Origin: Acidobacteriota bacterium
Lineage (GTDB): Bacteria; Acidobacteriota; UBA890; WLXD01
Direction of reading: 5' to 3'
Length of the DNA stretch: 64,000 nucleotides
Assembly: GCA_965205505.1 (NCBI GenBank)
Contig: CBDBHB010000009.1
Location: 2,848,001 to 2,912,000 of the forward strand
The notes beneath the pieces were generated by a model. It was given only the letters and a program-made list of their open reading frames with translations. It did not search any database and was not told the DNA's origin. How positions within the stretch are numbered: position 1 is the first letter of the stretch; every line of letters begins with the position of its first letter. Shown piece by piece: positions 1 to 35,914 of this stretch. The position numbers and the translations under genes are program-made.

Positions 1-2071
1 GACTGCGAACGCCAAGGTAGAGGTCGAGGCCAAGCGAGTCAGTGCGCTGCGCCTGTTGCAACAGCTCATCGAGCTGTCGGCCGACTTGCCGCCCGAGCTG
101 GAAGGGCTGGCACGCACGGCCACGCGGCCCGGCGCTATGGTCGACATCATCGCAGCGCATGTTGGTACGGCGGTCGAAGACAGGCAGCGGGTGCTTGAGA
201 CGTTGCCGCCAAACGAGCGGCTCACGGTGCTCCTGGGGCTGCTCGCGCAGCAAGTTCAGGTGCTCGAGCTGTCACAGAAGATCGAATCTGAAGTACAGGG
301 GGAGATCGACCGCGGACAGCGCGAGATGTACCTGCGAGAACGCTTGCGGGCCATCAAGCGCGAGCTCGGCGAGGAAGAGGACGACGCCGAGATCGAGGCG
401 CTTGGTCGGCGAATCAGCGAGGCCGCGATGCCCGACGACGTTCGGAAGATCGCAACCCAGGAGCTCGAGCGGCTTTCCCGGATGTCGCCTGCGGCAGCGG
501 AGTATCACGTTCTGCGCACGTACATCGACTGGATCCTCGACATGCCATGGGGTGTCTATACCGAGGACAACCTCAACCTCAAGATCGCGGCAGAGCTTCT
601 CGACAAGGACCACTACGATCTGGAGAAGGTAAAGAAGCGGATCATCGAGTACCTGGCGGTGCGCAAGCTCAAGCCGGACAAACGGGGCCCGATCCTGTGC
701 TTCATTGGACCTCCAGGGGTAGGGAAGACGTCTTTGGGTCGCTCCATCGCCGCCGCCCTCGGACGAAAGTTCGTGCGTCTGTCGCTAGGCGGAGTGCACG
801 ACGAGGCGGAGGTTCGGGGTCATCGTCGTACCTATGTGGGCGCCATGCCCGGCCGCATAGTCCAAAGCATCAAACGGGTCGGATCGATGAACCCGGTGTT
901 CATGCTGGACGAGATCGACAAGATCGGCCAGGACTTCCGGGGCGACCCTTCTGCCGCCTTGCTCGAGGTGCTTGATCCGGAGCAAAACGACACGTTCTCG
1001 GACCACTATCTCGAAGTCGCGTTCGATCTCTCTCGCGTGCTGTTCATCGCTACGGGGAACACGCCCGAGGGTATCCCTGCCGTCTTGCGCGATCGCATGG
1101 AAGTTCTCGAGCTACCGGGCTACACCGCCGAGGAGAAGGTCGAGATCGCACAACGCTATCTAGTGCCACGACAGCTCGACGATCACGGGCTTACTGCCGA
1201 GCAACTCAGCTTCGCCAGCGACGCTATCGGTGCAATTGTCCGCGACTACACGGAGGAGGCTGGAGTGCGTGGGCTCGAACGCGAGATCGCGGCGATTTGC
1301 CGTGCCCACGCCAGGCTGGTGGCGGAGCGAATCGATGATCCCGATGCCGCCCCCGCGGAGGCACTCGATGTGACTGTCGCGCATCTGCACCGCTTCCTGG
1401 GCCCGATAAAGTTCTTCTCCGATCTGGCGGAGCGAACCGCTGCTCCGGGTGTTGCGGTCGGCCTCGCGTGGACGGTCACCGGAGGCGACATCCTGTTCAT
1501 CGAGGCGACGCGAATGAAGGGGAAAGGCGAGCTGCGCCTGACGGGTCAGCTCGGTGACGTGATGAAGGAATCTGCGCAGGCAGCGATGTCGTACCTGCGC
1601 GGTCACGCTGTGCAGCTGGGAATCGCAGATAGTGCGTTCAGGAACCATGACGTGCACGTCCATGTCCCGGCCGGTGCCACTCCGAAAGATGGTCCGTCTG
1701 CCGGGGTTGCGATGCTCGTAGCCTTGGCCTCGTTGTTTACGGGGCGGCGAGTCGCGAGCGATCTGGGCCTCACCGGCGAGCTGACGTTGCGTGGGTTGGC
1801 GCTGCCGGTGGGTGGCATCAAGAACAAAGTCTTGGCGGCACACCGAGCCGGGCTCAAGCGAGTCCTCATGCCTCGAAAGAACGAGAAGGATCTCGAAGAG
1901 ATTCCGGAGCAAGCGCGGCGGGGCTTGGAGTTTGTGTTCATCGACCGGGTCGAGGAAGCACTGGAGCATGCATTGACGTCGCCGCCGCCGGCGCCGCGAA
2001 AAGCGGCAATCAAACCAGCACCTCGACGCAAGAAGAAGGCACCTCGCCGCCGGCCGGCAGGTTTGGGCTAG
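1..2071 (+). CDS. lon: ATP-dependent Lon protease (5'-truncated by window edge)
   Basis: Walker A GPPGVGKT, RRTYVGAMPG, catalytic DGPSAG Ser and GGIKNK Lys; frame open back to base 2. Confidence 0.97.
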   Translation, partial: TANAKVEVEAKRVSALRLLQQLIELSADLPPELEGLARTATRPGAMVDIIAAHVGTAVEDRQRVLETLPPNERLTVLLGLLAQQVQVLELSQKIESEVQGEIDRGQREMYLRERLRAIKRELGEEEDDAEIEALGRRISEAAMPDDVRKIATQELERLSRMSPAAAEYHVLRTYIDWILDMPWGVYTEDNLNLKIAAELLDKDHYDLEKVKKRIIEYLAVRKLKPDKRGPILCFIGPPGVGKTSLGRSIAAALGRKFVRLSLGGVHDEAEVRGHRRTYVGAMPGRIVQSIKRVGSMNPVFMLDEIDKIGQDFRGDPSAALLEVLDPEQNDTFSDHYLEVAFDLSRVLFIATGNTPEGIPAVLRDRMEVLELPGYTAEEKVEIAQRYLVPRQLDDHGLTAEQLSFASDAIGAIVRDYTEEAGVRGLEREIAAICRAHARLVAERIDDPDAAPAEALDVTVAHLHRFLGPIKFFSDLAERTAAPGVAVGLAWTVTGGDILFIEATRMKGKGELRLTGQLGDVMKESAQAAMSYLRGHAVQLGIADSAFRNHDVHVHVPAGATPKDGPSAGVAMLVALASLFTGRRVASDLGLTGELTLRGLALPVGGIKNKVLAAHRAGLKRVLMPRKNEKDLEEIPEQARRGLEFVFIDRVEEALEHALTSPPPAPRKAAIKPAPRRKKKAPRRRPAGLG

Positions 2072-8781: not shown

Positions 8782-9322
8782 GTAACAGATGATCGTTGCA
8801 TATCGCAGATGGGATTTGCGGGTGAGATCAAGGCGCGGCGAGGATGTCGATGCTAGCAGGCCGTGATGGAAGTGTGGTGGGTCTGGCAAGTGGGACTCAC
8901 GGGCTAGGGCAAGGATCGACGACGAGGCGATGCTGGAGCCATCGTCGAGGAGAGAGACGCCGCCATCGCCCGTGACTCCCACTTGCCCTACGGGTTACGC
9001 CGCCAAGGGCGCGTCTCCGGCGTTGCCGCTCCTAGACGATGCGCACGGGCATCGCCGGCGACGCGGCGCCTTGGATCTGCGCCCTTGGCGGCGTAACCAG
9101 ACCCATCACACTTCCATCACGACCTGCTGGGGCATCGTCGACGAGGCGCAACGCCGATATCGCCCGCAACTGCCCATCTGTCCGCAGGATGGCGGCGAAA
9201 TCGGCCCGTCTGCGGCGTTGCTCCTCCTCCAAGATGGGCAAACATCGTCTCCTCGTCGCGCCTGGCATCCGGACCCATTTCGCCACCACGATACGCAACG
9301 ATCATCTGTTACAGGCCACTAG
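8782..9322. mobile_element. Nested MITE-like elements (outer 8782-9322, inner 8853-9130)
   Basis: outer IR 8782-8805/9289-9312 (23/24 match); inner IR 8853-8886/9097-9130 (31/34); inner hairpin arms 8885-8904/8968-8987 and 8993-9012/9079-9098. Confidence 0.8.
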
Positions 9323-25671: not shown

Positions 25672-26985
25672 TCAGCCTTCGTGGTCTCTTCCGAGCACCA
25701 GTCCGGCGCTGGCGGCGAAGGGCAATGTGGTCGCGAAGAGCAGAACCATGAGTACTTCCGAGTCAGAAAAGTTGTACTCGAACAGCCCCATCGTGAGGAA
25801 TGCCCCGAGGGCGGCCAGGGCAGCGCGGGCCTCCGGCCCACCTTCGGCGAAGGGCCCCGTGTAGCGCAGAACTCGCCAGGCGCCGACGGCGAATGCGGCC
25901 ATGAGCCACAGCCAAGTCGCCAATCCGAGCAAGCCGCGCTCGGCCGCCAGGTGCAGCGCGTCGTTGTGCAAGTGAGGGTTGGTCTCTTTCGCCGCCCATT
26001 CCACCCGCCAGGCGGGGTAGACGCGGGGAATCAGCCCTGGCCCGACACCGAGAAGAGGATGCGCCTGGATGATGCGCAACCCGGTTGCTGCCATCGCCAG
26101 CCGATCGAGGTTCGTCGGGTTGTCGAGGGTGAAAATGCTCGCGCCACGCTCGTACAGTGCTTCCGGACCGGCGAGCATCAGCAATACCACGCCTCCGACG
26201 ACGACACCGATGAGCAGCAGCACTACGTATGCGGCCCATCGGCGAGGCGGCGGGCCGCCGCCGGCTGAGCGGCTGGGCACGAACCGCAAGCCGAACCAAA
26301 GTGCGAGGCCGACCAAGCAACCGATCCAGGCAGAACGCGTCATCGTGAGACCAATGACGACGAGCGCTCCCAAGGCCAGCGCACGGTGGAGCATGCCGAC
26401 CCATCCGTCGCGCAGCACCAGAAGCGTCGGAATCGCCAACATCAATGCTCCCGCATACGTCATGTAGTGCCCGAGCGTGCCATCTGGACGATACGCTCCC
26501 GGGAACTCGCCTCGTTGAACCGCCAGCACGGTGCCCAACAGCCCAACGACGATCGCTATCAACACGCCGATTCCGAGAGCGCGCAATCCGAGCCGGCGCA
26601 TCGATGGGTGCCGGTAAGCAAGGTAGGTGACCATCGGGGCCGCGAATAGGAATACCTCTCGCAAGGACCAGAGGCTCTCGACAGGTGCGCGCGACGCCAG
26701 GGCGGAGATCATCGAAACCCCCCAGAACGCCATCAGAGGGGTACCGACAAGAGAGAAAACGTCACCGGCGGGGCCGCGCGCCGGCGGCTCAGGTACGGAG
26801 CCGGCGCGCGCCAACTCCAACCGGAGCCAGTTGGCGCACCACAGGACCAGGGAGGTCCACAGCGCGATCTCCGCCACGGCAATCGAAAGCGGAATCGCCA
26901 GTGCCCACAGCAGCGCCACGCCGAGAAAGACCTGGCCCCAGGGATCGCGACCGACCCGTGAGCTGGCAAACGCGGGGAGTCGAAT
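25672..26985 (-). CDS. O-antigen ligase family (Wzy_C) membrane protein, probable ATT start
   Basis: TMTRSAWIG, HPLLGVGPG, HLHND.L.LAAERG; SD AGGAGGT 6 nt before in-frame ATT at 26985. Confidence 0.85.
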   Translation of the reverse strand: MRLPAFASSRVGRDPWGQVFLGVALLWALAIPLSIAVAEIALWTSLVLWCANWLRLELARAGSVPEPPARGPAGDVFSLVGTPLMAFWGVSMISALASRAPVESLWSLREVFLFAAPMVTYLAYRHPSMRRLGLRALGIGVLIAIVVGLLGTVLAVQRGEFPGAYRPDGTLGHYMTYAGALMLAIPTLLVLRDGWVGMLHRALALGALVVIGLTMTRSAWIGCLVGLALWFGLRFVPSRSAGGGPPPRRWAAYVVLLLIGVVVGGVVLLMLAGPEALYERGASIFTLDNPTNLDRLAMAATGLRIIQAHPLLGVGPGLIPRVYPAWRVEWAAKETNPHLHNDALHLAAERGLLGLATWLWLMAAFAVGAWRVLRYTGPFAEGGPEARAALAALGAFLTMGLFEYNFSDSEVLMVLLFATTLPFAASAGLVLGRDHEG

Positions 26986-27054
26986 GGCTACACCTCCTGA
27001 TGAGGCTCGATACTACCGTCGCTAGCGCGCCGTTGTCGGTAGAATGGTCGTTCG

Positions 27055-27339
27055 ATGAGCATGGTTCAACGCGTTCGCCTGAGAATTCGAGGGCGGGTAC
27101 AGGGAGTGTATTACCGCGCCCACGCGCGTACCGCAGCGACACGACTCGCTTTGCGAGGGTGGGTGCGCAACTGCGACAACGGGGCCGTGGAAGCTGTGGT
27201 GGAGGGACCACCCGCAACAGTGGAGGACTTCATCGCGTGGTGCCATCAAGGCTCGCCGACCGCACGGGTAGATCGGCTCGAAGTGAGCGACGAGCCTGAC
27301 GAGGCTGCGCTGGCGAGCAGTTTTGACGTCGTATTCTAG
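27055..27339 (+). CDS. acyP: Acylphosphatase
   Basis: GRVQGVYYR, GWVRN..NG.VE. Confidence 0.93.
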   Translation: MSMVQRVRLRIRGRVQGVYYRAHARTAATRLALRGWVRNCDNGAVEAVVEGPPATVEDFIAWCHQGSPTARVDRLEVSDEPDEAALASSFDVVF

Positions 27340-27441
27340 ATGAGAAGGCCAACCTCCTTGGGCTTCGAGCCCGTTGCGTTTGCTTAAACGTTTGCAGAGC
27401 CGTCAGGCTACTGCGTCAGGAGGTTGGCCTTCTCATCTCAT
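27340..27441. mobile_element. Miniature non-autonomous derivative of the IS1111-group element
   Basis: near-identical to 34670-34767; IR atgagaaggccaacctcct/aggaggttggccttctcat; CTAG on both sides (27336-27339, 27442-27445). Confidence 0.85.
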
Positions 27442-27477
27442 CTAGGTCTTGGACGAGGAAAAGGCGGGGGCGGGCGG

Positions 27478-29244
27478 ATGGCGCAACGGCGGAGTACCTG
27501 GACATGGGTGATCCTGGGGTTCCTGTTGTTGGTATTGCTGTTCTGGTGGGCGACCCAGTTTCTCAATCGCGCCGTCCTCGGACAGCGGGGGAGTCTAGGC
27601 ACAGACAATGTGCTAGAGGTCAGTCTGGTGGGGCAGGTCGTGGAACGACCAGCTTACCTCTGGGGCAGCCGCTCGATCGGTCCGCTGTCGGTTCGAGAGA
27701 TCGATAACGCGCTGCGGCGAGCGGCCGATGACCCGCGCGTCTCCGCCGCCGTGTTGCGCGTCGGTCCGATGCTCGGCGGCTTCGCGAAAGCGCAAGAGAT
27801 TCGTTCTGCTGTGCACGCGTTCCGCGACTCAGGCAAGCCGGTGGTGGCGATGCTCGAGCTCGGCACGCTGATCGATCTGTACGTCGCTTCAGCTGCGGAC
27901 ACGCTGGTTCAGGTGCCGACCGGTAGCTTCGTGCTGGGACTGGCCGCCCGCACGCAGTACTACCGAGAGTTGCTCGACAAGCTCGGGATAGAGTTCGAGA
28001 CGTTCGCCACCGGGCCCTATAAGTCGGCGATGAACCCGTACACGAAGACCGGCATGAGCGACGAAGAGCGGGAGGTGTTGGAGAGCCTGCTCGATAGCAT
28101 CTATGGCCAGATCCTCGACGGCATCGCCGAGGATCGGGATCTCGACCGGGGAACAGTGCAGGCGGCGGTCGACCGCGGCATCCTCCCGGCAGCTGCGGCT
28201 CGGGAGCTGGGCCTCGTCGACGAGCTGGGCTTCCACGACAGCCTCGCCGATGTCCTTGCGGGTGGCGACGCTCAACGCGTCAGCGTTCGCGATTACTGGG
28301 AGCTTGCCGGACCCAGCGGATGGAGCCTGGGGCGTCCGGCCATCGCTCTGGTTCACGTCGACGGGCTGATCCTGCCAGGCGACGTCACCAACGATCCGTT
28401 CGGTGGTGCGGTTGCCGGTGGCGATACGATCGCCCGGGCCATCCGGAGGGCGCGTCAAAGCGCTAGCGTGCGCGCGATCGTCGTGCGAGTTGACAGTCCG
28501 GGAGGGGCGGTCACGGCGTCGGATGTGATCTGGCGCGAAGCAGCGCTGGCGGCGGAGTCCATGCCGGTTATCGTGAGCATGTCCGACGTCGCCGCGTCGG
28601 GCGGGTATTGGATTGCCACTGCCGGAACTCGCGTCCTTGCCGACGGTGCTACCTATACCGGCTCGATCGGCGTGACCATGGGTCGTTACAACCTGGCTGG
28701 CGCCTACGCCAAGCTCGGCATCGCCAATGATGCCGTCACGCGTGGTGCTAACGCTGGCCTTTTTCTCGACTCGCGGAGGCTGTCGTCGTCAGAGCGCGAG
28801 GTTATCGAGGCTTCCATCGCGGAGACCTACAACACCTTCCTCGAGAAAGTGGCTGACGCCCGCGATCTGAGCTTGGCCGAGGTTGAACGGCTGGCCGCTG
28901 GGCGAGTATGGACCGGCCAGCAGGCTCTCGAAGTGGGCCTGGTCGACGAGATCGGCGGACTGCGCGCAGCCCTCAGCGCCGCCCGGCGCGCTGCAGGCAT
29001 CGATGCTCGCACCGAGGTGGATGTGCAGGTATATCCGCGACAACGCACCATGTTCGAGCAGATCGGCGGTCTTCTGACCGGCGCTGGCGCGGCGGCGGCT
29101 CCCGTTTGGACGGTCGACGAACTCTCGATCGTCATCCCAGATCCCGCAGCCCTGGCCCGCCGAATGGCGTTGCTGCGCTTGATGAGCTCGGGCAGCGCGC
29201 GGTGGGCGCTGATCGACGGACCCGTCCCAACTCCGGTTCACTGA
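27478..29244 (+). CDS. sppA: Signal peptide peptidase SppA (67K type)
   Basis: GPYKSA, RVDSPGG, AASGGYW, TGSIGV, GRVWTG. Confidence 0.92.
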   Translation: MAQRRSTWTWVILGFLLLVLLFWWATQFLNRAVLGQRGSLGTDNVLEVSLVGQVVERPAYLWGSRSIGPLSVREIDNALRRAADDPRVSAAVLRVGPMLGGFAKAQEIRSAVHAFRDSGKPVVAMLELGTLIDLYVASAADTLVQVPTGSFVLGLAARTQYYRELLDKLGIEFETFATGPYKSAMNPYTKTGMSDEEREVLESLLDSIYGQILDGIAEDRDLDRGTVQAAVDRGILPAAAARELGLVDELGFHDSLADVLAGGDAQRVSVRDYWELAGPSGWSLGRPAIALVHVDGLILPGDVTNDPFGGAVAGGDTIARAIRRARQSASVRAIVVRVDSPGGAVTASDVIWREAALAAESMPVIVSMSDVAASGGYWIATAGTRVLADGATYTGSIGVTMGRYNLAGAYAKLGIANDAVTRGANAGLFLDSRRLSSSEREVIEASIAETYNTFLEKVADARDLSLAEVERLAAGRVWTGQQALEVGLVDEIGGLRAALSAARRAAGIDARTEVDVQVYPRQRTMFEQIGGLLTGAGAAAAPVWTVDELSIVIPDPAALARRMALLRLMSSGSARWALIDGPVPTPVH

Positions 29245-29248
29245 CGCG

Positions 29249-31354
29249 GTGGCGCGGAAGTTTGTAATCCCACGCCGTGCCGGCCCTGAGCTCGATGTGG
29301 ACTTCGAGGGCGACCTCAACGAGCAGCAATACAACGCCGTAAGCAGTGGCGACGGTGGGAAGCTGGTAATCGCCGGCGCCGGCACGGGCAAGACGCGTAC
29401 GCTGACCTATCGCGTCGCCTGGCTGCTTGCTCGCGGCGTGCCCGCCGATGCGATCCTTCTCGTCACGTTCACCAACAAGGCGGCACGCGAAATGGTGGGC
29501 CGGGTCCGCGAGTTGACAAGCGTGGAGACCGACCGTCTATGGGGCGGGACATTCCACTCCGTGGGAGCAAAGGTCTTGCGGCGGCACGGGGCATTGCTCG
29601 GCTTCACCGACTCGTTCTCCATCCTCGATGAGGGTGACCAGCGCGATCTCATCCGACTGTGCATCACAGACGTCGGTGTGGAAGTCGAGCGGCGACGTTT
29701 TCCATCTCCGAAGGTGCTGGGATCGCTGATTTCGCTGCACGTCAACTCGCGCACGGAGCTGTCCGATCTGTTGGCAGAGCGTTTTCCGCGCTTCTTTGAC
29801 TGGGAAGAGCAGATCACAGCGGTCTCTCGAAGGTACGCAGAGCGCAAGCTGGCAGCAAACGCGATGGATTATGACGACCTGCTGGTGATGTGGCTGCGCC
29901 TACTCCGTGAGGTGCCAGAGGTGCGCCGCCGCTACGGTCAGCAGCTGCGATACGTGCTCGTCGACGAGTACCAGGACACCAACCTGATTCAGGGCGAGCT
30001 TGTAGAGACGCTGGCGCGTGAGAACGGCGGCAACCTGATGGTCGTGGGCGACGATTGCCAGAGCATCTACTCCTTCCGCGGTGCTCACTACGACAACATC
30101 CTCGGCTTTGCGGAACGTCATCCGAACGCCGAGGTCTTCAAGCTGGAGATCAACTACCGCTCGACTCCGGAGATCCTGCGGCTGACCAACGCGAGCATCG
30201 GCTTCAACACCGGCCAATATCAGAAGGAGCTACGGGCACGACGCCAGTCAGGGCAACTACCCGCCGTGGTGCCGTGCAACTATGCCGAGCAGGAGGGCGC
30301 CTTCGTGGCGGAACGCATCCTGCAGCTGCGCGACGAGGGGACGCCCCTGAACGGCATCGCGGTGCTGTATCGAGCGCATTCGCACCGGCTCTCTGTCGAG
30401 ACCACACTGCTCCGCTACGACATCCCTTATGACGTTCGTGGCGGCGTGCGCTTTTTTGAGCAGGCGCATGTGAAGGACGTCACGGCGCATCTGCGGCTGG
30501 TCGACAACCCACGCGACGAGATCGCGTTTCGGCGTGCCCTCATGCTTCAAAGAGGAATCGGCAACGTCACCGCCCGCCGCTTGTGGGAGGCGCTGACAAC
30601 GGCGAGCTCGGCCGACGAGCTGATTGTCCAGCTCTGTTCGGAACGCATTGGTCGTCTGCTGCCACGACGTGCCCACGACGCCTGGGACGCCTTTGTTGCG
30701 CGACTGCAGACGGTGGCCGCGTACCCAGCCGAGCCAGAGGCGGCTATCCGTGCCGTGATCGAGGGCGGCTACGACGAGTTCGCGGCCACCCAGTTCACCA
30801 ACTACGAGTCGCGAGTCGAGGACCTCGAGCAGCTGGCCCTGTTCGCAGCGCAGTATGAGTCGATCGGCGCGTTCCTGGAGGAGCTGGTCCTGCTCGGGGA
30901 GCTTTACGGACAAGATGTGCGCAGCGGCGGCGAACCGACCGAGGCGCGGGTGGTGTTGTCGACCGTCCATCAAGCCAAGGGGCTCGAGTGGTGTGTGGTG
31001 TTCGCCATTCACCTGGTCGAGGGTGCGCTACCGAGCCCGCGATCGCTGGACGAAGCGGGCGGGGAAGAGGAGGAGCGTCGGATCTTCTACGTCGCCATGA
31101 CGCGAGCCCGCGACGAGCTATATCTGAGCTATCCGATCGTGCGGCCGGGCGGAACGGGCGGTGCGTTGCTGCAGCAGCCTTCGCGGTTCCTTCAGGAGTT
31201 GCCGCGTGAGCTACTGGAACCATGGGAGCTGTTCGAGGCAGACAGCACCAGGCAGATCGCGCCCAATACTCCAGACTCCGTGGCCAAGACGGTCAGCGAC
31301 GAGTACGACCCCAACGTCGACCCGCTGTGGGACGACGAAGACTACCCCCAATGA
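29249..31354 (+). CDS. UvrD/PcrA family helicase
   Basis: AGAGTGKT, TFTNKAA, DEYQD, VGDDCQSIYSFRG, NYRS, STVHQAKGLEW, EERRIFYVAMTRA. Confidence 0.95.
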   Translation: MARKFVIPRRAGPELDVDFEGDLNEQQYNAVSSGDGGKLVIAGAGTGKTRTLTYRVAWLLARGVPADAILLVTFTNKAAREMVGRVRELTSVETDRLWGGTFHSVGAKVLRRHGALLGFTDSFSILDEGDQRDLIRLCITDVGVEVERRRFPSPKVLGSLISLHVNSRTELSDLLAERFPRFFDWEEQITAVSRRYAERKLAANAMDYDDLLVMWLRLLREVPEVRRRYGQQLRYVLVDEYQDTNLIQGELVETLARENGGNLMVVGDDCQSIYSFRGAHYDNILGFAERHPNAEVFKLEINYRSTPEILRLTNASIGFNTGQYQKELRARRQSGQLPAVVPCNYAEQEGAFVAERILQLRDEGTPLNGIAVLYRAHSHRLSVETTLLRYDIPYDVRGGVRFFEQAHVKDVTAHLRLVDNPRDEIAFRRALMLQRGIGNVTARRLWEALTTASSADELIVQLCSERIGRLLPRRAHDAWDAFVARLQTVAAYPAEPEAAIRAVIEGGYDEFAATQFTNYESRVEDLEQLALFAAQYESIGAFLEELVLLGELYGQDVRSGGEPTEARVVLSTVHQAKGLEWCVVFAIHLVEGALPSPRSLDEAGGEEEERRIFYVAMTRARDELYLSYPIVRPGGTGGALLQQPSRFLQELPRELLEPWELFEADSTRQIAPNTPDSVAKTVSDEYDPNVDPLWDDEDYPQ

Positions 31355-31427
31355 GTCGAGCTTGGGTTGCGCGCAAGGTCCCCGCGGTACTTTGACCCTC
31401 GGGCAGCGACCATGCTAGCTTCGACTC

Positions 31428-31874
31428 ATGGGGTTGGGCAGTTGGTTCTCTGTTGCTCGGGGCCGGGCGGCTCGGCGAGCGCCGACAAGCGTGGCACGCT
31501 CGTCGAGGACGTGTCTCGCAGGCGTGTTGGTGCTCGGCGTACTTCTAGCGCCCCTGGTTGGATCGGTCCTGGCGGCACAGGATCTTCGCCTGGGTGAGCA
31601 CGAATTCGATTGGAGTGCGGTCGAGCAAGAGCGGGCTCACTTCCGTTGGTCTGCCGAGGTCATCAACGACACGACCCGCGCGTTCGACGTCGAGGTGGCG
31701 ATCGATTTACTCGACGACGACGACGGCGTGCTGCACACCGACAGCGGAACAGTGACGGTGGTGGCGGGCGAGGTCGTAACCGTTGACCATGAGGGTTCGA
31801 TGCCCTTCGATGGCGCCGCCGACGTGGTGTCGTTTCGGTTTCGACTGCTGCCGAGCCCGCCTGCGTCTCGCTGA
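31428..31874 (+). CDS. Small secreted hypothetical protein (Ig-like/FxLYD-like)
   Basis: hydrophobic signal region then beta-rich domain with IDLLD.D; start uncertain. Confidence 0.55.
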   Translation: MGLGSWFSVARGRAARRAPTSVARSSRTCLAGVLVLGVLLAPLVGSVLAAQDLRLGEHEFDWSAVEQERAHFRWSAEVINDTTRAFDVEVAIDLLDDDDGVLHTDSGTVTVVAGEVVTVDHEGSMPFDGAADVVSFRFRLLPSPPASR

Positions 31875-32038
31875 CCGACGTAACAAAACGCGAAATTCGA
31901 CCTCGTATGACCTCGAACCGTCGCCAGAGCCATGAGTCGGCTGGCGGCCGCTGGCGCTTCTTGCTATAAACGCGCCTCTATGTCGGCACGTCGTTCATCT
32001 CGTCTTTCTGGCCGTTCTGCTCCCGGATCCACCGCCCG

Positions 32039-33127
32039 ATGAGGAATGCAAGCGAGGTACGTTCCTACTTCCTGGGCAACTGGCGAGAGGTCGTCCCCGA
32101 AATTCTGGTAACCGGCGTGCGCGTCGGGACCGCGCCCGACGACCAAAGCATGATCGAGGTGGAGCTTCTCGGTCAGGCCGGTGCGATCCGCAGACTTCTG
32201 TACCTCCCGCTGGCCTCGGGCGAGCCTCGTCAGCTGCGCGGATTGTTGCCCCGACTGCGTCGAATCGCCGCCAAGCCGGGCACCGGGGCCGGGCTCATCG
32301 TGCCGCATATGGGGGCGGCCGGCGCGCGTCTGTGTCGAGAAGCGGGCATCGGGTATCTCGATTGCTCCGGTAACGCGTATTTGCGGTTCAACAACGTCTT
32401 CGTACAGATCATTGGCAACCGGAATCGCTTCACGCAGCGTAAGCAGATCCGCACGTTGTTTCACGACAAGGCCACGATCCCGCTCCGCATCATGATGCAG
32501 CGGCCGGGTGATTGGCTCACCACACGCGAGATTGCTGAACATGGTGATCTGAGCCTCGGCTGGGTTTCGCAGATCCTCCAGCAGATGGCCGCGGATGGCT
32601 ACATCGAGCGCCAGCGTGGTGGCGGCTCGAGGCTAGTACGGCCGCAGCGGTTGCTGACCGACTGGCTCGCCGAGTACGCCTTCGAGACGAACGAGGTGTT
32701 TCCCTACCAGTTGCGTGACAAGGATCCCGAGGCTGCGCTGCACCGTCTCCGGACGGTAGACGCAGACCTGTCGGATCGCTACGCCCTGACGCTCGAGTCG
32801 GCCGTACATGCCCTGCAGTTGAAGCCACACCAGCGGCGACTGCCCTTCGAACTACACGTGTACGTTCCCGATCTCAACGAAGACCTGGAGAAGACGCTGG
32901 ACTCCTGGCGTCGGGTGCTGGGTCTTCGCCCGGCCGGTCATGGTGCCAACTGTTTTCTCGTAAAGCCGGCGTATCGGCATGCCGTGTTCTTCGACACACA
33001 GGCAAGCCAGGGTCTGCGGACCGTCTCGGATCTTCAGCTATACCTCGACCTGTATCATTCGCCAGGAGAGGGTCGCGTGCACGCCGATAACTCGGTGGCG
33101 TCGCGACTGCCCTTCGAGGTGGGCTGA
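32039..33127 (+). CDS. AbiEi-like (type IV toxin-antitoxin antitoxin) wHTH protein
   Basis: GIGYLDCSGN, HTH TREIAE..LSLGWVS, LLTDW, YALT, VSDLQLYLDL...GRV..A. Confidence 0.72.
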   Translation: MRNASEVRSYFLGNWREVVPEILVTGVRVGTAPDDQSMIEVELLGQAGAIRRLLYLPLASGEPRQLRGLLPRLRRIAAKPGTGAGLIVPHMGAAGARLCREAGIGYLDCSGNAYLRFNNVFVQIIGNRNRFTQRKQIRTLFHDKATIPLRIMMQRPGDWLTTREIAEHGDLSLGWVSQILQQMAADGYIERQRGGGSRLVRPQRLLTDWLAEYAFETNEVFPYQLRDKDPEAALHRLRTVDADLSDRYALTLESAVHALQLKPHQRRLPFELHVYVPDLNEDLEKTLDSWRRVLGLRPAGHGANCFLVKPAYRHAVFFDTQASQGLRTVSDLQLYLDLYHSPGEGRVHADNSVASRLPFEVG

Positions 33128-33159
33128 GGCCTTTCTGGTGTCACGAACGGCACCTTGAC

Positions 33160-33362
33160 CACGACCTGCTGGGGCATCGTCGACGAGGCGCAACGCCGAT
33201 ATCGCCCGCAACTGCCCGTCTGTCCGCAGGATGGCGGCGAAATCGGCCCGTCTGCGGCGTTGCTCCTCCTCTAAGATGGGCAAACATCGTCTCGTCGTCG
33301 CGCCTGGCATCCGGACCCATTTCGCCACCACGATATGCAACGATCATCTGTTACAGGCCACT
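33160..33362. repeat. 203-bp near-identical copy of 9118-9320 (right half of nested MITE)
   Basis: direct repeat from cacgacctgctggggcatc to ctgttacaggccact with a few substitutions. Confidence 0.92.
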
Positions 33363-33412
33363 TCTATGAGAAGGCGTAGTTCGGTCAAGGGCAATGTGGT
33401 GCCCAGCGAAGA

Positions 33413-33575
33413 ATCGATCTGCACGCCATGCTCCTATTCGCACTCTGGTGGACGAGGATTCAGGTCGTCCGGTGCATTCTGGGGTCCGTCCCGATTCGAG
33501 GCGCTGCAATCTAGCTGCCGAGCTCGAAGCTCGTAGTGACCTTCGCAGTCGCCCGGACCGGGCGGTCAGATCGAT
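33413..33575 (-). ncRNA. Predicted bridge/seek RNA of the IS1111 element
   Basis: 9-bp closing stem ATCGATCTG/CAGATCGAT; internal loop with AGGUCACUA and GCAGCUAG matching the target; AUAGGAG resembling the element end ATAGAAG. Confidence 0.72.
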
Positions 33576-33622
33576 AACCGTTGGGTCGCGTCGCCCTACC
33601 GACCTCCTGGTTGCGGGTTAGT

Positions 33623-34668
33623 TCATGCTGCTGAAACCTCTACAGGTGCGCGCAACGGTTCGTACTCGTCTCCACTCAGCCACAGTCGGTGCAGCACAAC
33701 GGCGAGCTTACGGGCGACAGCAACTGCTGCCTTTTTGTTGCCATGAGGACCACCGCGTCCGGCCAGCTTGAGCCCCCAGCGTCTGAGCTCAGTATCGGGC
33801 CCGAAGGGGCCCAGGATGTAATGCGCCGAGCCCACCAACAGGCGTCGGAGCATTTTGTCGCCCGCCTTGGTTATTCGTAGCGCAGGGTCCTTGTCCCCCG
33901 ACTGCCGTTTCTTCGGTCTCAGTCCCAGGTACGGGCCCACGGCTCTGGAGGTATTGAACCGCTCCGGCTCCTCGAGCGTCAGCACATACGCCAGTGCGGT
34001 CAGAGCTCCGACCCCGGCCACTTGCTGGAGCTGCTGTGTCTCCGGGTATCGCCCCTGGCACAGCTGCACGATCTGACGCTCGTATTGCTGGATGTTGCCC
34101 GTCAGCATGGCGATCGTTTCAAGCACCGGCTCGAGCGCTCCCTTGAGCCGCTCCGGTATGTGCTCTGGCGCGGTGCGCGCGAACGCCGGCGTCGAGCACC
34201 TGGGAATACGACAACCGGCCGACTTGACCGCACCACGCACATGGCTCACCAACTGCGTGGGCTCTTTACCAGAGCATCTCGGCTCCGAATCACGGCTAGA
34301 TCCGCTCGCGCTTGTCTGCCTCGATGCTGCACCGTCTTAAGCAGCTTTGGGTCCATTCTGCCCACTCGTGCCAGGTGCTCGGCATCCAACCGGTCGGTCT
34401 TGTCGTGCTCGCCATAGATCAGCTTCAGCCGCCTCGGGTTAGCCACCAGCACCTCATGACCCAGTTGCTTCAACTGCTCACTCATCCACGGCGAGTGCGT
34501 TCCAACCTCCAGCACTACTCGAGCGGGCTCCTCGCACCCGAACCGCCTCGCCAGCCCCTCCGGGCTCGTCCTCACCCGCCCTTCCTCCATCACCCTGCCC
34601 TTACTGTCGAGCACGCACATACGGCTGTACCGGTCGCTTACGTCCAGTCCAATCGTTACACTCCTCAT
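33623..34668 (-). pseudogene. IS110 DEDD/Tnp recombinase with one frameshift near 34260
   Basis: IGLDVS, LEVG, KTDRLDA in 34246-34668; GVGALTA, YLGL.P..RQSG, AVARKLA in 33623-34252. Confidence 0.9.
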
Positions 34669-34761
34669 CGGCCAACCTCCTTGGGCTTCGAGCCCGTTAC
34701 GTTTGAAGAAACGTTTGCAGAGCCGTCAGGCTACTGCGTTCAGGAGGTTGGCCTTCTCATC

Positions 34762-35914
34762 TCATCTAGAAGGCGTCCCCAGCGCTGATCCCATGCTCCC
34801 CATTCGTGTGCCGAACAACGAGGGGCTGAAATGCGGTGTGGGGCCTGCATACCATGTCGGCGATTGGCTCAGCATCCCTTCGAACATCTTCGCCCAGTGG
34901 TCGGCGACGCCGAAAGCCATCGCGTACGGAAGGTAGCGCTCGAAGGCGGTCTCGGAAATGCTGAGGGCCTTGAAGCGGTTGGCCTCGGTACGGCCGAGGA
35001 ATTCCTCGAAGCCCTTCAGTGCAACGAAGGTCTCACGCCCCTTCACGGTTCGGGCCGGCATGAACGGCGCGAATACGCCAATGGCCAGCGCCACAAACGG
35101 GGCGGCGAAGGCCATCGCCGGCTTCTGCAGGGAGACGGCGAGCAGGATCATCGGCAACAGCGACACAACCGCTATGGCAATCCAGGTCGTGCGTGCGCGA
35201 TCAGGTCGCGAACGAAACAGACCACGCTTGGTCATGCTCCCGTAAAGCTCGTTCTTGATGCCGCTAATGCGGGTGTAGAAAGGCCCTCGAGCACCGACTT
35301 CTCGTAGGAACGTAGCGCCTCGTCGGGCAGCTTCAACCGCTGGAAGGTGGTCTTCGTGGTATCGCCGAGGTCCATGGCGGTTGGCGGAGGCCTTCAGGAA
35401 GGCTGATCTGCGCCGTTGCCGACAGAATCGGCACCGTCCAACCCATGCCGGTCACATTCCAATAGAGCTGGTCGTGTGACTCGAAGCCCTCTTCCGTGTC
35501 CGGAAATCGCAGCGCCCGACCAACGCGGTAGCGCAGGACGACGGTTCGAGACGCGTTGTTGGCGTCTGGAACCCAAACTTTGAAGCGAAAGTCGTCGCCC
35601 TCGACGCCGGCCTCGTGGCGTAGGGCGGCCCCGGTCGCCGCGGTGACCGACACAGGCTCCAAGCGGAGCCCGTAGTCAAGTCCCCACGGGGTCTCGTACT
35701 TGATCGGAATGTCTCGATAAATACCGTTGAACGAACCCTCGAAATGAAACGTGAGGCGCTCGGTGACATCGATCTCGCCGCTCTCCAGCACGCGGATGTC
35801 GGCTTCGAAAGACTCGACCCAGTATTGTCGCCCCTGAGCCTCCACGGCGCCCGGTGCGATGTACGAGACAAGCACCATGAGGACTACCGCTGAGGCCGCG
35901 CTCCGCCTACTCAT
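34762..35914 (-). pseudogene. DUF2207 membrane protein, internally deleted, frameshifted and 3'-truncated by the IS
   Basis: FNGIYRDIP, LYWNVTG..W, FERYLPYAMAFGV..W in different frames; lies after lemA; Gly-rich C-terminus missing. Confidence 0.82.

Follow-up and report, generated by a model that had tools for sequence, protein, structure and literature searches.

A fixed, single-copy relic of an IS1111-type insertion sequence between acyP and sppA in an Acidobacteriota genome

How does a short palindrome, made from one end of a resident insertion sequence (IS), come to lie between two housekeeping genes, and can it still move? This question is raised by a locus of an Acidobacteriota bacterium (assembly GCA_965205505.1), in a stretch of 64,000 nucleotides of contig CBDBHB010000009.1 (positions 2,848,001 to 2,912,000, hereafter the window), where a 102-bp mini-element separates the acylphosphatase gene acyP from the peptidase gene sppA. 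A preliminary description, made from the letters of the window, had taken it for a miniature inverted-repeat transposable element (MITE) of an IS1111-type IS or, failing that, for a collapsed copy. We read the mini-element as a relic of the resident IS, non-autonomous, fixed and present once, and not as a member of a proliferating MITE family. The origin that we favour, with chances that we would put at about even, is an off-target insertion that collapsed, its right arm templated on the hairpin of the left end (LE), and that is now immobile.

The mini-element and its empty sites

The orientation of the loop places the LE sequence of the mini-element on the minus strand. Its parts are as follows.

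27340..27441, minus strand: body of the mini-element, 102 bp, between acyP and sppA
27336..27339, no strand: left CTAG, whose TAG (27337-27339) is the acyP stop codon
27442..27445, no strand: right CTAG
27338..27358: left arm of the inverted repeat, including the subterminal inverted repeat (IR) ATGAGAAGGCC at 27340-27350
27418..27438: right arm of the inverted repeat, with GGCCTTCTCAT at 27426-27436; an extra CTCAT unit follows at 27437-27441

The two CTAGs and the overlap with the acyP stop agree with the preliminary description. The inverted repeat is perfect, as was stated there, and is two bases longer than the 19 bp given (21 bp), with 59 nt separating the arms. Read on the minus strand, the sequence runs CTAG-ATGAG-ATGAGAAGGCC…(cloverleaf)…GGAGGTTGGCC-TTCTCAT-CTAG. 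The body corresponds to positions 1 to about 103 of the IS LE (ATGAG-ATGAG-AAGGCC … GGAGGTTGGCC) followed by TTCTCAT, and GGCC-TTCTCAT occupies the place where the IS runs into its transposase start. The complete left tip, the structured 5' leader and both 11-nt subterminal repeats are kept. A transposase, a guide RNA, a genuine right end (RE) and any open reading frame (ORF) of its own are missing, and the LE homology extends over the body, which bears out the earlier claim of an element built from the LE only.

The near-identity with the IS end at 34670-34769, 7.3 kb away, was likewise confirmed. Positions 27347-27416 match 34670-34739 at 94% over 70 nt and 27416-27445 match 34740-34769 at 100% over 30 nt, the two blocks being separated by a single 1-nt indel, and the mini-element is about 95% identical over about 100 nt to every LE in the genome. 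Compared with the majority LE, it carries four substitutions, clustered in the middle small hairpin, and lacks one A, a 1-nt indel also found in one full copy and in the relative of genome G011. A loop inversion, considered as the origin of the four clustered substitutions, gave no fit in a by-eye comparison of LEs. Folded as RNA, the hairpin has a predicted energy of -65.7 kcal/mol (z = -7.6), which none of 200 shuffles reached. A search of 27200-34900 against Rfam matched no bridge-RNA family; a match of mir-3150 on the mini-element, at 33 bits against a gathering score of 100, was set aside as a chance miRNA-hairpin match.

The mini-element is real and is no assembly artefact. In all four public runs examined, which come from four studies, contigs link acyP to its interior with letters specific to the mini-element, and its right arm to sppA; a single 361-nt contig spans 27084-27444. 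Carried in the contigs of all these runs, it is fixed.

It is also the sole copy in its genome, where the LE matches nothing else outside full copies. A two-arm pattern for the closed form, consisting of 28 exact letters that diverged relatives would escape, matched in 1 of 26 genomes of the order, namely its own. Exact scans with the same pattern gave no match in two public collections (genome_contigs and metagenome_contigs), which may omit records of the window's own genome. The proposed MITE family with multiple copies was thus not found. No extra solo subterminal repeats were found in the genome: the 91 11-mers that lie outside IS copies and differ from the repeat at one position appear without exception to be chance matches in unrelated sequence, and CTAGATGAGAAGG at C9:2258404 falls within coding sequence and shows no LE similarity beyond itself. 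Head-to-head LE junctions and circle-type RE-LE junctions were absent from the assembly.

In all four congeners acyP and sppA are adjacent and colinear without the mini-element, which is therefore an insertion. The flanks in G004 are 92-94% identical and read GTATT-TTGA-GTCCTGG, against GTATT-CTAG-(102 bp)-CTAG-GTCTTGG in the window; they are colinear with this empty site and equal in length when CTAG is counted once. An empty site with a single CTAG had been anticipated, and the empty site stands in 4/4 congeners, with CTAG in G001 and TTGA in G004. The related expectation, that a one-off remnant would be single and would have no empty site in relatives, held for the copy number and failed for the site. 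Among MITE traits, the mini-element thus shows small size, absence of coding sequence, terminal inverted repeats and presence or absence with a clean empty site, and it lacks the several copies. No empty-site or excision joints were seen in the contigs of the four runs, which represent near-identical strains, and contigs drop rare forms.

Full IS copies are missing from the congeners. With four substitutions and one indel per 100 nt, against IS copies 98.6-99.9% alike, the mini-element does not stem from the current, near-uniform burst of the IS, and is older than this burst or apart from it.

The parent IS, its guide and its target

The window contains a full-length copy of the parent IS, which served as reference, and a vacant target. 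In the entries below and in the text, a slash within a sequence marks a junction.

33361..34765, minus strand: full-length reference copy of the parent IS1111-type IS, 1405 bp, with a transposase split into 34668-34246 and 34252-33623
34669..34765, minus strand: LE, or 5' leader, of the IS, in which a 12-bp stem encloses three small hairpins
33534..33542, minus strand: guide segment AGGTCACTA, located in the non-coding sequence 3' of the gene and complementary to TAG/TGGCCT at 8/9 positions, the ninth being a G-U pair
33509..33518, minus strand: second guide-like segment GCAGCTAGAT, in the same sense as the left junction CTAG/AT
9313..9322, minus strand: unoccupied canonical target CTAG/TGGCCT, at the end of another high-copy repeat

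The frameshift-split protein of this copy comprises the domains DEDD_Tnp_IS110 (PF01548, E 1.3e-15) and Transposase_20 (PF02371, E 3.3e-17). BLAST searches with the IS found about 30 copies in the genome, at 98.6-99.9% identity, and three truncated ones. The transposase ORF is intact (348 aa) in 10 of 29 copies. In other copies it ends at recurring positions (122 aa in 10, 140 aa in 4 and 63 aa in 3), the copy of the window being of the 140-aa type; these recurring stops may go back to frameshifts that the copies inherited or to systematic assembly errors at homopolymers. All 38 PF01548 matches in the genome fall within copies of this one IS, so the genome holds a single IS110-family lineage, and the sibling with a different guide that had been suggested as a mover in trans was not found there. 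A search with the intact transposase returned one distant relative, at 43% identity, which was uninformative for comparing ends.

The leader folds at -51.5 kcal/mol (z = -5.4), and its 12-bp closing stem pairs the AGGAGG ribosome-binding site. At the left junction, a variable flank ending in CTAG (27 of 28 copies) or TTAG (one copy) is followed by ATGAG-ATGAG-AAGGCC…; the number of ATGAG units varies, with three in 1 of 28 LEs. All 31 right ends conform to (T)CTC(A/T)T-AGAAG-TG(G/A)CCT, where …GGCCTTCTCAT-AGAAG is followed by TGGCCT in 30 and by TGACCT in one. Relatives in G011 and G018, which use different targets, end in CCTTCTCAT-AGAAG. The true right end of the IS therefore extends 5 nt past the far-end IR (…TTCTCAT-AGAAG), and the target is CTAG/TGGCCT. 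Only AG is common to both junctions, which identifies it as the crossover dinucleotide. AG has also been reported as the crossover dinucleotide of ISPpu9 (PMC12288879).

Subterminal IRs of 11 nt lie 5 nt inside the left tip (ATGAGAAGGCC) and 5 nt inside the right tip (GGCCTTCTCAT), and the non-coding sequence amounts to about 260 nt 3' of the gene against 97 nt 5' of it. Subterminal IRs, a long 3' non-coding region and a protein of 330-350 aa are given as marks of the IS1111 group (PMC11187229). By its domains, IRs, non-coding region and site-specificity, the parent element fits the IS1111 group of the IS110 family. At the right tip, G000 (the genome of the window), G011 and G018 share a conserved TTGAC(C/A) that precedes TAGAAG by 16-17 nt (window 33371-33400, minus strand; L017 and L019) and could be an outward or junction promoter.

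The relative in G011, whose IS is 69% identical, carries CGGACTCTA at the place equivalent to the guide segment, and this matches its own flank TAG/AGTCCG at 9/9 positions. The guide assignment is supported by this covariation with the insertion site (TAG/TGGCCT in G000, TAG/AGTCCG in G011), and the comparison supports site-specific insertion set by a predicted guide RNA encoded by the element. The CTAGAT of the second segment is invariant in G000 and in a fragment of the IS in G004, and reads GTAGAT in G011. A small conserved hairpin lies between the two guide-like segments (window 33509-33542, minus strand, compared with L017, G011).

The genome contains 109 unoccupied CTAG/TGGCCT sites. Since 60 of the 109 CTAGTGGCCT sites sit at the ends of a modular high-copy repeat, most insertions of the IS fall at the border of this repeat. 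Parts of the repeat occur about 50-185 times in the genome (in the window at 8782-9322 and 33151-33362); it ends in CTAG/TGGCCTGTAACAGATGATCG and was found in all four congeners. The site occupied by the IS copy of the window is empty in G004, G003 and G001 (…AGGCCA/CTAG/AAGGCG). The gene beside this copy (ORF 34762-35235, minus strand) is without a Gly-rich 3' region of about 95 nt that is kept in three congeners. It now stops at a TGA inside the left tip of the IS, while the stop of the congeners is the TAG of the target CTAG (34762-34800 compared with L035, L036 and L037).

Origin and fate of the mini-element

The evidence on origin lies mainly in the right tip. The mini-element reads CAT-CT-AG where the conserved right end of the IS reads CAT-AGA-AG, and the AGAAG tip present in 31/31 right ends and in two relatives is absent from it; of the two genuine ends expected of a MITE, it thus has the left one only. 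Reverse-complemented, its right tip gives exactly a left tip in which ATGAG stands once (CTAG-ATGAGAAGGCC): …GGCC-TTCTCAT-CTAG becomes CTAG-ATGAGAA-GGCC, one ATGAG unit shorter than its own left tip. The palindrome exceeds the subterminal IR by 2 nt (AG/CT), and continues through CTAG if one ATGAG unit is allowed for. This extension past the subterminal IR argues that the right tip was copied from the LE and not from the RE, and at most 7-11 nt may be RE-derived. The right-tip string TTCTCATCTAG occurs at one other site in the genome, in no right end; this second site is apparently a chance match within coding sequence.

The preliminary description had placed the joint at a GCC shared with the far-end IR. 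Such a joint predicts …TTCTCAT-AGAAG, as in the 31 right ends and the two relatives, and fails on the …TTCTCAT-CTAG of the mini-element. The AG spacer in place of TCT that had been noted is a true difference, and more than the spacer is affected, the whole real RE tip being absent. The mismatch between flank and guide that had been pointed out was verified: compared with the guide-implied TAG/TGACCT, AATACG on the minus strand agrees at 1/6 positions and GTCTTG on the plus strand at 0/6. The mini-element therefore has neither the canonical right tip nor the guide-matching flank of a competent bridge/seekRNA donor.

A collapsed copy is thus the better of the two options first offered, although by another route than the one proposed. 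We infer that, after the split from the nearest congener, a full IS copy integrated off-target at the CT-AG of the acyP stop, CT-AG being the only part common to this site and to the normal target CT-AG/TGGCCT. During replication, the nascent strand would have copied the right arm of the 12-bp LE stem, folded back onto the left arm and, with the left tip as template, added TTCTCAT and CTAG, with a slip of one ATGAG unit. It would then have rejoined at the AG of the right junction, with deletion of the remainder of the IS and preservation of the acyP stop. Such a collapse accounts for a breakpoint that falls exactly where the stem ends, for the pairing of two additional bases, for a second CTAG and for the survival of the stop codon. 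The two CTAGs, together with the exact colinearity, argue against a random deletion end and for an event tied to CT-AG chemistry. In quasi-palindrome correction by intramolecular template switching, known from mutagenesis in E. coli, an imperfect hairpin is converted into a longer perfect one by copying the flank of one arm. The classical process changes few bases and deletes no kilobase, and for the mini-element one has to postulate a return to a distant point on 2 nt. Recombination at unexpected AG dinucleotides has been described for ISPpu9 with altered ends (PMC12288879). Because it has no canonical right tip, no guide-matching flank and no guide of its own, the mini-element is probably immobile.

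Several points weigh against this reading. No intermediate was seen, neither a full IS at the acyP site nor a two-unit palindrome. The fold-back has to return on just the 2 nt AG and to slip one repeat unit. Integration off-target must be an uncommon event, given that 31/31 of the full or 3'-bearing copies sit on-target. The empty site of G004 has TTGA, which differs from CTAG in 3 of 4 letters, and CTAG is present in G001 only, so the CTAG before insertion is itself a reconstruction. Finally, a single copy does not by itself exclude mobility, because IS110-type elements move by excision and reinsertion, and rare excision products are not visible in contigs.

Two shorter relics bear on the fate of off-target copies. 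At C8:861042 in G000 (L030, about 403-420), CTAG is followed by a 10-nt left-tip relic, ATGAGATGAG, at a stop codon. The relic replaces 13 native nt that are present in G004, and AAGG is shared at the joint, which marks it as the product of a microhomology deletion in which the IS was lost together with part of the flank. In G004, a decayed LE fragment stands directly after the rnhB stop TTCTAG. A further remnant in G004, from the 3' non-coding region, begins with the internal CTAGAT, next to which lies a left flank of the usual kind; the CTAGAT of the guide region may have recombined with the left junction, or a deletion may have joined the two. The G004 remnants come from L028 (about 1500-1600, minus strand) and L018 (about 1490-1620). 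All three LE relics, including the mini-element, stand at a CTAG that forms the TAG stop of a gene; the native flank is readable for the mini-element and for C8:861042, and neither matches the guide well. The IS family thus decays into LE-proximal remnants, which may mark off-target sites. The string TACGACGT, common to the flank of the mini-element and to that of the G004 relic, is native in both and was judged a coincidence.

The leading alternative, which we consider unlikely, is a genuine mini-IS without autonomy (MITE-like): the resident transposase would have carried it to CT-AG in the form of a small circle, and cut-and-paste movement would keep it at one copy. Both subterminal IRs are indeed present, but the right tip is without the conserved AGAAG and in a circle the subterminal repeats would lie 9 nt apart across the junction, not 10. 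CT-AG stands at both junctions, as at the left junctions of the IS (27 CTAG and one TTAG among 28), whereas the flank agrees with the guide at 0-1 of 6 positions and the genome offers no alternative guide. The 10 of 29 copies with an intact 348-aa transposase could act in trans, and the empty acyP-sppA site in 4/4 congeners suits a mobile element; yet all searches (the genome, 26 genomes of the order and the two collections) found the one copy. Precedents are the engineered mini-ISEc11, which moves with transposase and seekRNA supplied in trans (PMC11187229), and the natural MITEPpu9 (PMC12288879). A mini-IS would require one event more than a collapse in place, and the CT of the right tip would stay unexplained.

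Quite doubtful, in our view, is a plain internal deletion in which the GGCC of the LE, where its stem ends, was joined by microhomology to that of the right subterminal repeat, with point changes at the tip thereafter; this is the joint of the preliminary description. The required GGCC is found in the LE (…GGTTGGCC/GATG) and in most right ends (…CTAGGCC/TTCTCAT), and the AAGG joint at C8:861042 documents a microhomology deletion in this family. The product expected, …TTCTCAT-AGAAG-AATACG, is however not the …TTCTCAT-CTAG-AATACG observed, which would take one deletion plus two substitutions within 5 nt. Moreover, the expected form would remove the acyP stop, the ORF then running far into sppA, and the changes at the tip lengthen the palindrome, which points to templating.

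A further reading, compatible with any origin, concerns the two neighbouring genes.

27055..27339, plus strand: acyP, acylphosphatase, 94 aa (Pfam Acylphosphatase, E 1.8e-25)
27478..29244, plus strand: sppA, peptidase S49 (Peptidase_S49, E 1.1e-69)

The acyP ORF closes on the TAG of the left CTAG, so its stop codon comes from the CTAG flank. The longest sppA ORF opens at TTG 27424, inside the mini-element, while the conserved start is ATG 27478, shared by 5/5 aligned sequences; automatic annotation may therefore overextend sppA into the mini-element. A very stable hairpin and a segment antisense to the IS now lie within the putative acyP-sppA transcription unit. The relic might accordingly have been retained as RNA, either as a stable 3' hairpin or read-through barrier or as a 100-nt antisense to the transposase leaders, and we regard this as improbable. 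The fold of -65.7 kcal/mol would suit a barrier; however, the 21-bp stem is followed by CTCATCTAGGTC and not by a U-tract, and a scan for intrinsic terminators at the mini-element listed only a small inner hairpin. No promoter-like sites were found in 26900-27700. If transcribed from acyP, the plus strand of the mini-element would, speculatively, be antisense to the transposase leaders. In the predicted co-fold, this RNA and the IS leader reach -203 kcal/mol together against -113 apart, although the tight self-fold would slow pairing in trans. For ISPpu9, the sense and antisense leader RNAs Ssr9 and Asr9 have been proposed to tune transposase translation (PMC12288879). The fixation in four studies would agree with a function, but a neutral insertion can also become fixed in one lineage without one.

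Still further down, we give little credence to a mini-element that is alive, the resident recombinase excising an element with two LE-type tips and reinserting it at bare CTAG without pairing to the right half of the guide, in a guide-relaxed LE-LE mode of bridge recombination, and/or its antisense RNA from acyP-sppA damping or tuning transposition through the roughly 30 leaders. The idea of an LE-LE donor arises because the palindromic CTAG lets a reversed left junction mimic a right junction, with subterminal repeat, short spacer and AG. If the mini-element were still mobile, a palindromic core would allow two left ends to serve as a donor pair.

That the palindrome is an independent host repeat of the repetitive extragenic palindrome (REP) type, targeted or captured by the IS so that the LE is one part of a split target, can be dismissed almost entirely: the IS is flanked by the two halves of the mini-element (GGCC/TTCTCAT), one comparison alone does not discriminate, and IS1111 does target the palindrome of QMITE2 in Coxiella (PMC5896051), but 28/28 LEs with intact tips carry the 100 nt beside unrelated left flanks, one solo copy was found where many and a split palindrome would be expected, the empty IS sites CTAG/TGGCCT contradict it in showing no trace of a palindrome, and the LE is 85% conserved in a relative whose whole IS is only 69% alike.

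Comparison with known systems

Open-access papers and preprints yielded no description of an LE-only element closed by its own inverted left tip. The mini-element is of value chiefly as a trace, left in nature, of an RNA-guided recombinase element that inserted off-target and decayed, and such traces are useful because bridge/seekRNA recombinases are under development as programmable genome-editing tools. Together with the two shorter relics, it suggests that the family may occasionally land at sites sharing only the CT-AG core, that off-target copies may not be kept as full elements, and that the structured left end would be the part that survives.

The closest known system is MITEPpu9, with the ssr9 module of ISPpu9, a named transposase-less derivative of the IS110 family in Pseudomonas putida KT2440 (PMC12288879). 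Like the mini-element, it is small, has no transposase and is made from sequences resembling the ends of a resident IS110-family IS; it also recombines at an AG dinucleotide, and its RNA is related to a structured transposase leader. Circles of MITEPpu9 form only when the transposase is present. According to the same source, MITEPpu9 has an A'-type left box and a B'-type right box, occurs in 8 copies and gives detected mini-circles at the canonical REP target, whereas the mini-element is present once, has no genuine right tip and sits where the guide does not match. The parents also differ, that of the mini-element being of the IS1111 type, with subterminal IRs and a 3' guide, and that of MITEPpu9 of the IS110 type.

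In the engineered mini-ISEc11, 84 bp of LE and 71 bp of RE around a cargo show that IS1111-type ends suffice as a donor when protein and RNA are supplied in trans (PMC11187229). That construct keeps the full right end and guide-matching flanks, and the mini-element has neither. In Coxiella burnetii, IS1111 inserts into the GTAG palindrome of QMITE2 (PMC5896051), which is similar to the use of a (C/G)TAG site at a repeat by the parent IS described here. QMITE2 is however the target of IS1111, while the mini-element is derived from the IS and is not a place of IS insertion.

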